A stretch of DNA of 4,340 nt from IMG/VR virus record IMGVR_UViG_2526164693_000022. One strand, 5' to 3'. Of the stretch, positions 1 through 4,340 are shown one piece after another. Origin of the DNA: a virus (taxonomy: Duplodnaviria > Heunggongvirae > Uroviricota > Caudoviricetes). Within the stretch, counting starts at the first letter, position 1; every line of letters starts with the position of its first letter. A program made the position numbers.

Positions 1-3000
1 TTACTCCTCAGGTTCGTAAGCTGTGAAGACAGCGACCTCCGTCTGGCCGGTTCGGATTCGTACCTCGCAGAGGTCTTTCCTCGTTACCAGTGCCGTCACT
101 ATGACGGTTAAACAGATGACGATCAGGGCGATTAACATCGCCTTTTGCTGCTTCATAACCTGCTTCTCCTTGCCTTTCGGCGCGTAAGAGGCTAACCTAC
201 GTTTGTGAAGCATAGATTGGGCCTCAGATTAATGTTAAGCGTCTTGCAGGACGCGTAATGTTAACTGGGGCTTTTCTCTGTCTGCCTTACGGTGGCATGC
301 CCGAGGCAGACAGCCTCAAGCACCCGCAGCAATTCTACTTAACTCTCGCTTTACAGCAAACCGTTTTGCCCGATATGGGAATTCCCATACGGAATGAATT
401 CAGTTCCCCAGGCGCTCCATCAAAAACACAACCAGGCAGTAAACACCCACAACAGCAATAACAGCCAGAGCGCCTTCCATTACCAGTGAAATATCATCCG
501 ACATATTCCCTCCCTTGGTGTGAATCCCGGCGAACGTTTTTACCCCCACCGACAAATAACATATACTAGAAAAGCAATAGCTATAGCAACGCCTGCAAAT
601 GCATCTGGCCGGCTCATTGGTTCTCCCCCTGTGTCGCTTCTACTGCGATCTGACTGGCGTATTCGTTAATGGTAACGATAAGTTCTTGCTCGGCCTCATC
701 CAGACAACTACCGATACCTCGCCTGTCCACTTCAGAAGCATCGAAATCTGCACGAAGCCTGGCGACCTTCAGGATTGCGGACAACACCTCATCAGGGATT
801 GCCGGAGAGTTGGTTGACGTTTCCGAGATTATCCGAAAATTATTGGTTGACGAACCCTTATTTTCCCGAAAGTTTCCAGCCTGAAGCATGGCGGCGCGGT
901 GACACCAGATAATCCAGCCAAGCGCCATATCCCATACCATGTAATCTCTATCGCCATTTTTTGCTCTGCGGCGATCTACAGATTCTCCGAAACGCTTCTC
1001 CATAAATAATTCATAGGCTGCTCGTTCATCCGATACTGCTGCCAGTGATGCCAGCGCAATCCGTGCCAGCTCTTCCGCTTCTTCTGCTGGAAGCACAACG
1101 TTGCTACCCGGTCCGTATGTTTCGCGCCAATGCTGGATTGTCAGCAGTCGATCTTTGGTAATAGTGGTCATAGCTATTTCACCTTAATCTCAACATTTCG
1201 CAGCTTTAGCTCTACTGGCATGTCTGACTTTCCTGTTAATGCTAATGCGAGATTTTCTGGAGTAATGAGAGCAGTTATTGTTTTCCCCATCGCCAGACGA
1301 ATAATCATTCGTATTTCGCGATCGTCACATGCTCCTGGTCGAACAATTGATATTTGTCCGTTCATCTCACTCTCCTTTGATGCGAATGCCAGCGACGCGT
1401 AATGCGTGTTCTAGGTCAATCAGGTAAAGCCAACTGCCATTTTCTTTAGGTATCATGACATGTCGCTCATCTGCATTTATCGGGTGTCCATATCGAAGGT
1501 CGTAGCGAGTCGGTAATTGAACTTCCCGCGCTTCCAGTTCAGCAATACGCTTGCTCCCATCAGAGATAACGCCTTCGTAATACTCACGCTGCTCGTTGAG
1601 TTGTGATTTTGCTTCTTCCAGTCCATCCAGCAAATCAGCGATAATATCCGCTTCCCGATGACGGATGTGACGCTTAAACGCAGCAAGAGCCGCATCACAA
1701 TCCCGTTCAGCATTTGGGCTGTCCGGGGTAGCCTGATACCACGCCAGCGTCGATTGATAGTTTTGTGCTGCCTCACGCAGTGCCTGATAGTCAATCTTGC
1801 CCACTGGCTGCCTCCTTTGCCGGGATTTCTAACTTTTGAGTGGTTGTATCAAATTCAAACAACTTAACCACGTCATCAAACAGGACATAATCACCATCAG
1901 GATCTTCAGTCATATCAGCGCCACAATCCTGACCGCACGAGTCGCAACCTCCCATATCAAGCTCGTATCGCTTCAGGTTCGCGATATTTGATAAATTCAG
2001 CGCCAGTATAGCCAGATCATTAACCTCGTCTGCGATATACCCTGCACCATGTCCATACATTTCAATGCGGGATATGATTTCTTCTACACGTTGTTTTGTG
2101 ATCGTCATTTTTCTCTTCACTCCGATATACAAGGATTACTACACCCCCTCTGCTGATTGCGCGAGCTGGATCCCCTGGTTCCATGCCGTCAATTCCGAAG
2201 GCTTCGAAAAATGCATCCATTGCCTTCTGGCGTTGCTCCTGCTTACGGCGTTTATTCCATTTTTTCATGAACAACAGTGACAGCCATCGTCCGCTGCAGA
2301 ACATGATGTAGAAATAACCAAGGAGCGCTAGGCCGGTGTTCAGGGCTGTATCGATCGTTATCGTGGTGTTGATGTTCACTTCACACCTCTCTGTTTGTTG
2401 ATAAGTTCAATATCCTGCTGGCAACTGGCGCAAGCTCTGCATCCACGAACAGCCAGGCGTCGCCGCTCATCTATCGGATCGCCACACTCGCAACAATGAG
2501 TAGCAGATGGGGCATTACTATCGGATTTGTATTTTTGCAGGGAGAGATTGCGCTGCAATTCTTCGATTTCAGCGGCGTTGTCGATGATATCTGCCATTTT
2601 CCTTTCCTTCAGGCATGAAAAAAGGAGCCGAAGCTCCTTTGGTTTTAGAATTCGAATTGCCTTGCCCGCAGGCTTTTCAGCATTGGTCTGGCCCGCTGAA
2701 CTACGAAACTCGACTGGTCAAGCCGTGCCGCCTCTCTCAGTAGCACATCTCTGTTCTTCGTCACCATGTAGATGGTCTCAAACGCAATGTCATACAGCTT
2801 GTTCGTGTATGAGGAGTTCAGCTCTTTCATGATCGGATACAGGTGTTTGCTGAGGTCCTGGGCTTTTTCCATCCAGAGTTGCATGTAGCAGAGGAGGATG
2901 ATTTCCTCGTCTGTGAATTGTTGCTGTGGTTCTGCTTGTGCCGACTGCATGTTGCGAAGTTTCTTTTCGCACTCGATGAAGTATCTGCGTATCTGTCGGC

Positions 3001-4340
3001 CTTTTTCGTTACGCTCTACCATCGCCGTTTCTTTGGCTGTATCGAGGGTAAGGTGGTAGTCTTTTTTCCCTCGCCCATAACCTATTTCCCGTTTCTGGGA
3101 AATAGCTATATAGTCCTGATTTTCAACGAATCCGTACTCTTCAATACGTTCTGTAATCCACGATGCAAAGCGTTTACCTACTCCAAGAAAAGTATGTAAA
3201 TCACGGGCATTAACGAGAAGAGTGGTTTCGTTGGCGATAGTGCCGTTGAATACGGGGATGAGTTGACTGGTCATGATGACCTCCTTATTTGTTTAGTTTA
3301 TAACCGCCAGTTAGTAGCTGGCGGTCGGGTGTCAACTGAGCCAAATAAGAAGCTCTGGGCATATTCCCCTTGCGGGTGTTGTATTACGCCTCTCCACCCG
3401 ACCTTTGTACGGATGTAACTATGCCAAATTGCAGGCATAAAAAAGCCGCAAAGCTATCGGGTGCGGAGACCGCTTATTTGTTCAGTGCGGTCAGTATGCG
3501 ATAGCTCTGGAGGATTTGTCAATCAGCGGAATATTGATGAACGGGTAACGGTAAATGCCTCATCCAGAAAATTAACGCAAATTCGCATCGCAAACTTGCG
3601 TTAATTATCTGAAATATCAAGTTAAATCCCCTTAAATGTTTGGGGCACTATTGGGGCAAAATGTGGTTGTTTGGGGCATATTTGGGGCAAAAAAGAACGT
3701 ATAAAGAACGGTGTAAAATTGATTTCTTCATGGTCAAAATGAGGTGTAACAGATTGAAAAATATATGCTCTTGGACGATCTTCGGTAATTCTGTGTTTTT
3801 AATGCTTCATGGTTTCAATATGTCCGTACATGGAATAATAAAGCACCAGAACTTTAGCCATTTCTAACCACTCCTCGTGTTATCTCTATTCCGTAGCGAT
3901 TCGCTACCACTTATTTAAAGATAAGACGTCCTTTTCAGAGTGCAAATTTCACAACCACTTATTTGATTTATAACAACTTTCACAAGCACGCAATTTTGTC
4001 GCAAAATGACACATTTTTATCTCATCGCGTTTTTTTAATCATAAGAGCGGCTTATGGATAATTATTGGAGATGATATCTATTCTCGCTAAGAAGCTGTTG
4101 CAGGATATTACCAAACGCGGGTAGAAACACGTCAGTTCACTAAGCTTAGTCCCACGTAGCGAAAATATGGCAGCCGCCATACGCCGCGTTAATTCTAGCA
4201 ATATGATGTCTATACCCAGACGGAGGTCAGTAATGGCAAACCATCGAGGCGGTTCCGGCAATTTTGCAGAAGACCGCGAAAGAGCATCAGAAGCAGGTAA
4301 AAAAGGTGGCAAGAGCAGTCACGGCAAAAGCGACAACTAG

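Follow-up and report, generated by a model that had tools for sequence, protein, structure and literature searches.

Three co-oriented gene modules at the attR end of a lambdoid prophage, with a probable RNA-switched antirepressor cassette

Does a row of small, overlapping genes that all point the same way at the end of a prophage form one operon with one function? The question is raised by a stretch of Caudoviricetes DNA of 4,340 nucleotides (nt) (IMG/VR record IMGVR_UViG_2526164693_000022), hereafter called the window, in which seven minus-strand open reading frames (ORFs) lie between 614 and 3274, the first of them an antirepressor-like gene, ant. In an earlier note on this DNA, the seven were taken as a single translationally coupled operon that could serve, together with its TraR-like regulator, as a defence or anti-defence module. 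The analysis described here indicates that they are probably three co-oriented modules and not one operon: an autonomous, RNA-switched ant cassette (module A), a traR-like gene with a DUF4752 gene (module B) and four genes of the ea/nin type (module C). The ant cassette is read here as a switch of the immI type known from phages P1 and P7, which would be built with a different RNA family, sRNA-Xcc1.

ant as a probable transcription unit of its own

The seven ORFs and their junctions were recomputed and agreed exactly with the positions noted earlier (Table 1). A Shine-Dalgarno-like sequence was found at all seven starts, and the ORFs are regarded as real genes because each has many homologues at the protein level. 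The start of the gene for an acidic 105-amino-acid (aa) protein of family phrog_3126 was placed at the ATG at 2108, in agreement with PHROG coverage and homologues, and not at the TTG at 2132, which gives a 113-aa form. Tight packing of this kind is normal in phage early regions and is no signal by itself. Two further co-oriented loci lie beyond the cluster and had been missed in the earlier count, namely an eighth gene for a 34-aa protein and a hok/sok locus.

The -35 and -10 hexamers of the predicted ant promoter are constant in position across divergent leader classes despite differing flanks. At the other end of ant, the 47-nt spacer before the traR-like gene is taken up by AAAGGAGC-UUCG-GCUCCUUUUUU (2640-2618), predicted to fold into a hairpin of 8 base pairs (bp) with U6 behind it. 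In other phages, 19 distinct sequences downstream of ant were compared. The hairpin comes after the stop codon in 17 of them, and what lies beyond it takes at least four different forms; of the two exceptions, the most divergent ant has a different hairpin and U-run, and the other ant runs directly into a second ant cassette. The terminator was found by eye and by folding, and was passed over by an automated scan, apparently as the A/U extension of the stem uses part of the U-run. Because this conserved terminator parts ant, with its own promoter and leader, from the genes behind it, the seven genes are unlikely to be one transcription unit. Of the earlier observation, the ORFs and junctions are retained and the single coupled operon is given up. 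Control of ant by LexA was rejected as a candidate, with two one-mismatch matches to CTGT-N8-ACAG in all, both inside genes and at chance level.

From the traR-like gene to the 185-aa gene, neither a terminator nor a strong promoter was seen, and these six genes are for that reason compatible with one unit that depends on read-through. The same lack of a strong internal promoter, the co-orientation and close packing of the seven genes and their overlapping stops and starts are what a single translationally coupled operon for defence, anti-defence or superinfection exclusion would have, and several of the products are small and acidic, like many anti-defence proteins. Such an operon is nevertheless quite unlikely in view of the conserved intrinsic terminator after ant, and no match to PADLOC defence-system profiles was obtained among the seven proteins. 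The last four genes normally lie in the nin region under pR, and relatives of the cluster genes are also found in the exo-xis region of other lambdoid phages. In 160 viral contigs with ant or the 105-aa gene, the seven genes were always co-oriented and the complete set was present in none; the recurring blocks were ant-traR-DUF4752 and DUF4752-105aa-Ea22-63aa-185aa-34aa-hok. Likewise, none of 5,426 complete Escherichia coli genomes held the seven genes together or at least 80% of the window in one place. The set is reshuffled between phages. Five of the products are known by family only, and a role in defence is possible for single genes. Separating signals between the genes and homology to early-region phage genes, named in the earlier note as speaking against a module, were found in part.

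The ant leader and its three-site code

The ant leader contains a match to the Rfam family sRNA-Xcc1 that covers the full model (1-87) and scores 69.1 bits, with E = 1.3e-11 and a gathering score of 53. Between the end of the element and the ant start lie 41-44 nt. With single-sequence nhmmer, 57 of 95 ant-type starts were found to have such an element at the same spacing, and the 160 phage loci searched contained no element other than in front of an ant start. Rfam also places leader classes of greater divergence in sRNA-Xcc1. Upstream of the element, the predicted short 5' RNA carries the hairpin CCGCA/UGCGG (3466-3446) followed by U6; its stem covaries between leaders (CCGCA/UGCGG vs CCAAC/GUUGG) and the U-run is invariant.

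Three 8-nt sites link these parts to one another. The loop of hairpin P3 in the sRNA-Xcc1 element (CUUAUUUG) is complementary to CAAAUAAG, which is present twice, as a1 in the short RNA and as a2 at the ribosome-binding site (RBS) of ant, where it always adjoins the Shine-Dalgarno sequence at -17 to -10. Loop, a2 and a1 differ across approximately 14 sequence variants and yet remain exactly matched; CUUAUUUG and CUUUGAAG are two such differing, non-cognate variants of the code. Among eight close relatives, 7 of the 8 pairs of the loop-a2 helix were changed on both sides, with 85.5% of the cells paired, and the a1-loop helix likewise had 7 of 8 pairs changed on both sides, with 91.9% paired; the remaining 36 pairs of the leader were almost invariant. 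The loop/RBS complements were found by anchored searches, as scoring at a fixed offset was too crude where the classes differ in spacing.

From this arrangement we infer the following direction of regulation for module A, which runs from the promoter through the short 5' RNA with a1, the C4-like antisense RNA and a2 on the Shine-Dalgarno sequence to ant and its terminator. Pairing of the P3 loop with a2 would block ribosome binding, and this block would keep Ant silent in the lysogen; Ant, once made, would inactivate a CI-type repressor. The a1 copy on the short RNA would compete for the P3 loop and may relieve or tune the block. It could act as decoy, activator or attenuator, the last of these being hinted at by GCGG/CCGC pairing as an alternative to the small terminator stem. 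The three short sites would together form a hypervariable specificity code.

Where ant-type cassettes stand in tandem, each has a different code (loci L017, L058 and L064). Two ant-type genes approximately 530 nt apart, each with its own sRNA-Xcc1 leader, were seen in these loci (ant starts at 452 and 986 in L017) and in L066-L069; five tandem copies have been reported in Xylella (PMC12189769). In the L017 leader (class u4), two complementary segments, CUCGAAA/UUUCGAG and CCCAAAAG/CUUUUGGG, lie at about -230 and at -26 from the ATG; both occur in an upstream and an RBS-proximal copy, like the bipartite a/b sites of c4.

In P1 and P7, RNase P excises the C4 RNA from a common transcript, and the RBS region of the icd-ant operon is the site with which the loops of C4 pair (PMC5320573, PMC8201110). 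The ant leader resembles this immI system in having an antisense RNA upstream of ant, on the same strand, with a closing stem and two hairpins, and in having a variable loop complementary to the RBS region (a2/b2) and upstream duplicate targets (a1/b1), the targets setting the specificity (PMC5320573). C4 and sRNA-Xcc1 follow a common plan of closing stem, two hairpins, a second loop antisense to the target, a GG start and an RCC(A/C) tail; the GG(U/C) start and RCC(A/C) tail of the window element are as would be expected of an RNase P substrate, like c4. The window differs from P1 and P7 in that its RNA belongs to sRNA-Xcc1 and not to C4 and has one main variable pairing segment instead of two. 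No icd/orf45-like ORF is present between this RNA and ant, whose Shine-Dalgarno sequence and ATG come directly after hairpin P4. A second precedent is the Salmonella prophage Gifsy-1. There, the read-through isrK-orf45-anrP mRNA, which encodes the antirepressor-like protein AnrP, is translationally silent, and its translation is activated by IsrK, a short terminated RNA (PMC4825925). The predicted order of promoter, short terminated RNA and antirepressor-type gene is the same in the window; in contrast to IsrK, the short RNA of the window has neither the two 5' hairpins nor an Rfam isrK match, and no orf45 follows it.

Both kinds of leader were met before homologous genes. In locus L079, a homologous ant is preceded by bona fide isrK and C4 (6150-6335) where the window has the short RNA and sRNA-Xcc1, and the same three sites are present, with a copy of a1 in isrK, the complementary loop in the second C4 hairpin and a2 at the RBS. 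The two pairs of RNAs seem interchangeable before the same gene. This case, the plan shared by C4 and sRNA-Xcc1 and the P1/P7 and Gifsy-1 precedents are the grounds for reading the ant cassette as an immI-type switch.

The three covarying sites could alternatively be DNA operators, two direct copies and one inverted, for a protein such as the N-terminal domain of Ant. Covariation as reverse complements is equally expected of operators, site a1 lies just downstream of the -10 hexamer, a typical operator position, and the N-terminal domains of Ant-type proteins are DNA-binding folds. A count of G-U against A-C mismatches, by which RNA pairing might be told from DNA sites, gave 11:3 with a compositional background of 60:25 and did not discriminate. 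The setting of the sites speaks against operators: the inverted copy always lies in the loop of a conserved, covarying hairpin belonging to a family detected as an RNA of approximately 88 nt in Xanthomonas (PMC2996969), a2 always abuts the Shine-Dalgarno sequence, and the same three-site pattern recurs with bona fide C4 and isrK before a homologous ant. The proteins encoded downstream of members of the RNA family are moreover mutually unrelated (Bro-N, Rha, KilA-N, SymE, HTH), and we hold the operator explanation to be improbable by comparison with pairing of the P3 loop to a2 as RNA.

Gene families and mosaic structure of the row

As judged from its sequence relatives, the window is the attR end of a lambdoid prophage of the Sp5/933W type in wrbA. 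At 2105-4340, the window shares 99.7% identity with phage VT2-Sakai and with the right end of Sp5, a prophage of E. coli O157:H7 Sakai, beside rutG and ymdF, and a YmdF-like KGG protein is encoded at the window end. The N-terminus of WrbA is read on the minus strand from 3867 and is interrupted at approximately 3814, so that the attachment-site-proximal position given to the cluster in the earlier note is borne out. Codon 18 is the last of wrbA before the prophage. As the 5' part of wrbA (3814-3867) is directed inwards, host transcription of wrbA would proceed in the direction of the ant cassette. In the circular Stx1 (Shiga toxin 1) phage, ant lies straight across the attachment site (attP) from int-xis on the same strand. 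That position is the one held by the 'ea' genes of the lambda b-region. It would place the cluster downstream of the early-left unit of pL after excision or infection and sever it from pL in the lysogen. Modules B and C would probably be expressed by read-through only, because no promoter was recognisable in them: after excision or infection from pL via xis-int-attP, as for the lambda b-region ea genes, and in the lysogen only by leakage past the ant terminator.

Two side observations concern the DNA between attR and ant. An inverted repeat at 3565-3611, between attR and the ant promoter, has 22-nt arms (86% complementary) and a 3-nt spacer and lacks a U-run; a sib-like RNase III hairpin for retroregulation of int is one possible reading, a protein-binding site another. 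At 3637-3692, about 120-175 nt from the attachment core, TTGGGGCA occurs four times in two 25-nt direct repeats 31 nt apart, which are probably arm-type binding sites of the integrase.

All seven proteins are assigned by profile searches to known phage families, including the last five, which had been left unrecognised in the earlier note and belong to DUF4752, phrog_3126, Ead/Ea22-like, phrog_1222 and the leader and core of DUF551-type proteins. The ant product matches PF08346 (AntA; 95.2 bits, cut-off 27, 3.7e-27), PF10548 (P22_AR_C; 36.3 bits, cut-off 22.4, 6e-09) and phrog_377 (1.8e-98) and is, by domain content, a phage antirepressor of the AntA/AntB type. An ant has been studied in phi24B (PMC3064807), which may be the same gene.

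The TraR-like protein matches PF01258 (31.8 bits, cut-off 24.9) and, in the Protein Data Bank (PDB), chains of F TraR (5w1s, 6n57). As read from its sequence, it begins M-A-D-I-I-D, with Asp3 and Asp6, and has four Cys. It resembles F TraR and lambda Orf73 in its length of 73 aa, its C4 zinc finger, the two N-terminal Asp residues and these PDB matches (PMC9239242), and differs from F TraR in staying below the NCBIfam TraR-family cut-off (TIGR02419, 52.6 vs 59.7 bits); nothing besides TraR was gained from the NCBIfam search. Orf73 of lambda and other phage homologues of TraR bind RNA polymerase and inhibit ribosomal promoters, and D3 and D6 of TraR-type proteins are functionally important (PMC9239242). 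By analogy, the TraR-like protein of module B probably enters the secondary channel of RNA polymerase and would reprogram host transcription as lambda Orf73 does. The earlier view of the cluster as accessory is upheld, and it includes an antirepressor and a TraR-like regulator, which would act on the repressor or on host transcription (PMC9239242).

The DUF4752 protein (PF15944, 134.5 bits, cut-off 27, 1.3e-39) has one hydrophobic N-terminal helix. Its 105-aa form overlaps the next gene by 47 nt (2062-2108); the Sp5 form has 94 aa, and the extension arrives with the nin-region version of the gene. In the acidic 105-aa protein, the 'Cys cluster' described earlier is not conserved as such: in an alignment of homologues, Cys58 was often Phe and two Cys were near-invariant. 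The 145-aa protein matches PF13935 (Ead/Ea22-like; 51.4 bits, cut-off 27; residues 3-65 on positions 2-79 of the 139 of the profile) and phrog_250, a likeness confined to the N-terminal and coiled-coil part; a C-terminal domain like the solved one of lambda Ea22 was not found, a PDB sequence search at E <= 1 having given chance-level matches only. Ea22 and exo-xis genes of lambda affect the lysis-lysogeny decision (PMC10834534, PMC4195576). The 63-aa protein belongs to phrog_1222 (1e-40). The 185-aa protein matches phrog_14306, phrog_660 and phrog_60 and has, ahead of a helical insert, the same variable leader and the same invariant core (residues 37-125) as 'DUF551 domain-containing' proteins, which are very common; the DUF551 domain itself (PF04448) was not matched in this protein, and the chain ends after the insert where its relatives run on into DUF551. 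The 3' third of the gene (604-795), which encodes this insert in place of the DUF551 domain, is absent in the first nin-region relative compared (L002) and present in two others (L284 and L286); relatives of 289 aa carry both.

Solved-structure relatives were sought by sequence for all seven proteins and found for the TraR-like protein alone; none was obtained for the ant, Ea22-like, 185-aa, 63-aa, 105-aa and DUF4752 proteins. AlphaFold2 models of the 105-aa and 185-aa proteins, from alignments of 37 and 17 rows, had a mean predicted local distance difference test (pLDDT) score of 54 and 49, too poor to use. A literature search on the locus tags and on DUF4752 returned nothing relevant.

The row is a mosaic of two parental contexts. 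Sp5/VT2-Sakai (ECs_1245-ECs_1251) and the Stx1 phage NC_004913 (ORFs b33-b38) have, in the same place beside wrbA/attP, an ant, a TraR-like gene, most of DUF4752, a leader and an attachment region that are 99.6-99.7% identical to those of the window, and share hok. In Sp5, the 94-aa DUF4752 gene is followed by genes for 72, 219 and 131 aa, and in the window by the nin block of 105-, 145-, 63- and 185-aa genes. For positions 1-2393, in turn, the match (99.3% identity) is a nin-region block, located between the replication genes and Q in many E. coli prophages, with the order P, DUF1627, 105 aa, DUF4406, DUF4752, 105 aa, Ea22-like, 63 aa, 185 aa, 34 aa, hok, 92 aa, DUF968, RusA, Q. Both contexts share 2105-2393 (289 bp), inside DUF4752, which is the recombination hinge of the mosaic; the four small genes of module C would have been imported by recombination within DUF4752. 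The hok/sok part of the window shows 92% identity with its Sp5 counterpart and 95% identity with that of the FORC_044 prophage (L002).

The same picture would result if assembly had falsely joined, through this 289-bp segment, the end of an Sp5-like prophage and the nin block from a different one. A draft contig (GCA_000316565.2, ANMF01000031.1) matches the window with 100% identity and ends 64 nt past it, a second draft contig with the same arrangement ends approximately 495 nt past it, and the exact arrangement was met in draft contigs only; to this is added its absence from the complete E. coli genomes. The join is present, however, in at least two assemblies, each listed as seen in two samples, and recombination of co-resident lambdoid prophages is well known. 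An artefact is therefore judged unlikely, and a natural recombinant the likelier origin because long viral contigs, with 10 kilobases (kb) of flank, show the similar order ant-traR-DUF4752-phrog_3126-Ea22-like in versions 76-78% identical. A search for the marker proteins int, Q and P in seven viral loci gave no matches. That ant follows traR in some loci is no longer taken to show mobility, as the upstream traR may be an exo-xis copy several kb away.

The nearest parallel to modules B and C is found in lambda, where the b-region ea genes, the exo-xis genes (orf73, ea22) and the nin genes are small, packed, early accessory genes of no essential function that are expressed by antiterminated read-through from pL or pR (PMC9239242, PMC10834534, PMC4195576). 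The window is like lambda in having a TraR-like Orf73 and an Ea22-like protein and in the place of the cluster across attP from int; it differs in gene content, in that its Ea22-like protein shares the N-terminal and coiled-coil part only, and in that expression from pL is in its case a presumption. The gene set belongs to an ordinary kind of lambdoid accessory mosaic that has been annotated before, and the neat order and overlap of small co-oriented genes at a prophage end are no proof of a functional module. What is of wider interest is the proposed RNA control of ant alone.

Table 1. Features of the window and junctions between its genes (positions in the window)
Feature	Position	Strand	Description
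attR core	3812-3818	.	Attachment site annotated in related Stx1 phage maps here
Predicted sigma-70 promoter of ant cassette	3493-3522	-	TTGACA-18-CATACT; only 10/12 match on minus strand
Predicted short 5' RNA, IsrK-like	3439-3486	-	Site a1, 5-bp hairpin, U6; transcription start inferred
Target copy a1	3473-3480	-	CAAAUAAG; single-stranded, predicted 5' end of transcript
sRNA-Xcc1 RNA (RF02221)	3315-3403	-	Closing stem P1, hairpins P2 and P3
P3 loop	3342-3349	-	CUUAUUUG; exact reverse complement of a2
Hairpin P4	3303-3325	-	ACCGCCAG/CUGGCGGU; between RNA element and ant RBS; stem covaries between leader classes
Target copy a2	3284-3291	-	CAAAUAAG; overlaps ant Shine-Dalgarno AAGGAGG (3286-3280)
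ant	2645-3274	-	209 aa; AntA N-terminal domain and P22_AR_C
Intrinsic, bidirectional-looking terminator	2618-2640	-	8-bp stem, UUCG loop, U6
TraR/DksA-type zinc-finger gene	2376-2597	-	73 aa; counterpart of lambda Orf73
DUF4752 gene	2062-2379	-	GTG start, 105 aa
Acidic 105-aa protein gene, phrog_3126	1791-2108	-	ATG start
Ead/Ea22-like gene	1367-1804	-	GTG start, 145 aa
63-aa protein gene, phrog_1222	1174-1365	-	
185-aa protein gene	614-1171	-	DUF551-protein leader and core, helical insert, without DUF551 domain
34-aa hydrophobic protein gene	400-504	-	Strong Shine-Dalgarno; 109 nt downstream of 185-aa gene; annotated in relatives
hok/mok toxin ORF (1-213) and sok antitoxin RNA region (151-325)	1-325	-	HOK_GEF; RF01794, 114.9 bits
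Junction ant / TraR-like gene			+47 nt
Junction TraR-like / DUF4752 gene			-4 nt (GUGA)
Junction DUF4752 / 105-aa gene			-47 nt
Junction 105-aa / 145-aa gene			-14 nt
Junction 145-aa / 63-aa gene			+1 nt
Junction 63-aa / 185-aa gene			+2 nt

The wider sRNA-Xcc1 family

A pattern scan of one genome per species gave at least 120 further loci (L164-L283). Among the matches listed, to which all counts in this paragraph refer, Xanthomonadaceae, Pasteurellaceae, Neisseriaceae, Enterobacterales, Desulfovibrionaceae and Alphaproteobacteria were represented, and in 111 of 122 elements an ORF started at a near-constant distance after the conserved motif, mostly 64-108 nt. The downstream products were Bro-N proteins (28, the largest cluster), an acidic protein of 219 aa in Xanthomonadaceae (26), SymE toxin (9), HTH_3, Rha and KilA-N. 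A perfect loop/RBS complement of at least 7 nt was present in 51 of 116 distinct elements and in 3.7% of non-cognate pairs; the mean complementarity observed for the 116 was reached in 0 of 20,000 permutations.

Members of the family have been described upstream of an ORF6N gene in APSE phages (bioRxiv 10.1101/2020.03.17.996009) and upstream of symE in Xanthomonas integrons (bioRxiv 10.1101/2025.06.18.660453), and a cis target was proposed in none of the papers found. In the papers found, sRNA-Xcc1 is cited as a trans-acting small RNA under HrpG/HrpX control (PMC12189769, bioRxiv 10.1101/2020.03.17.996009). The element before ant could on that account be a trans-acting RNA only, or a neutral hitch-hiker without a role in ant expression. 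Either is very improbable given the fixed distance to the downstream ORF and the complementarity of loop and RBS far above the non-cognate level, both among the matches listed, and given that orphan elements numbered zero in the 160 phage loci; a cis role of the element in ant translation is the reading that we retain.

Several points weigh against the proposal as a whole. Within the cluster, promoter-like matches of 8/12 at best were found, which are weak. Rfam C4 (RF01695) and isrK (RF01394) gave no match in the window at E <= 1, and kinship with C4 is for this reason drawn from architecture and position only. The mismatch counts given above were neutral between RNA and DNA, and about half of the wider family, among the matches listed, was without a perfect loop/RBS complement of at least 7 nt. 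The arrangement of modules B and C could be an assembly join, because its junction lies in the 289-bp repeat and was seen in draft contigs only. The transcription start site, the two RNA species and their ends, processing by RNase P, the strength of the terminator and read-through from pL are predictions made from the sequence.

A more general proposal, for which we see even chances, is that sRNA-Xcc1 RNAs make up a second class, and a widespread one, of cis-encoded antisense 'immunity' RNAs like C4. They would gate the translation of toxin (SymE) genes and of genes for antirepressor-type proteins (AntA, Bro-N, Rha, KilA-N) through a hypervariable code of three sites, namely a 5' decoy, a hairpin loop and an RBS-adjacent site. 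With Stx prophages, it would depend on this code which of the co-resident or incoming phages can silence the antirepressors of one another or release them, and the induction of Shiga-toxin prophages would be influenced in this way. If this were confirmed, the sRNA-Xcc1 family would gain a function and a target rule, and it would become clear why its members precede Bro-N, Rha, KilA-N and SymE genes across Proteobacteria. It would also provide a testable handle on the cross-talk of co-resident Stx and non-Stx prophages.

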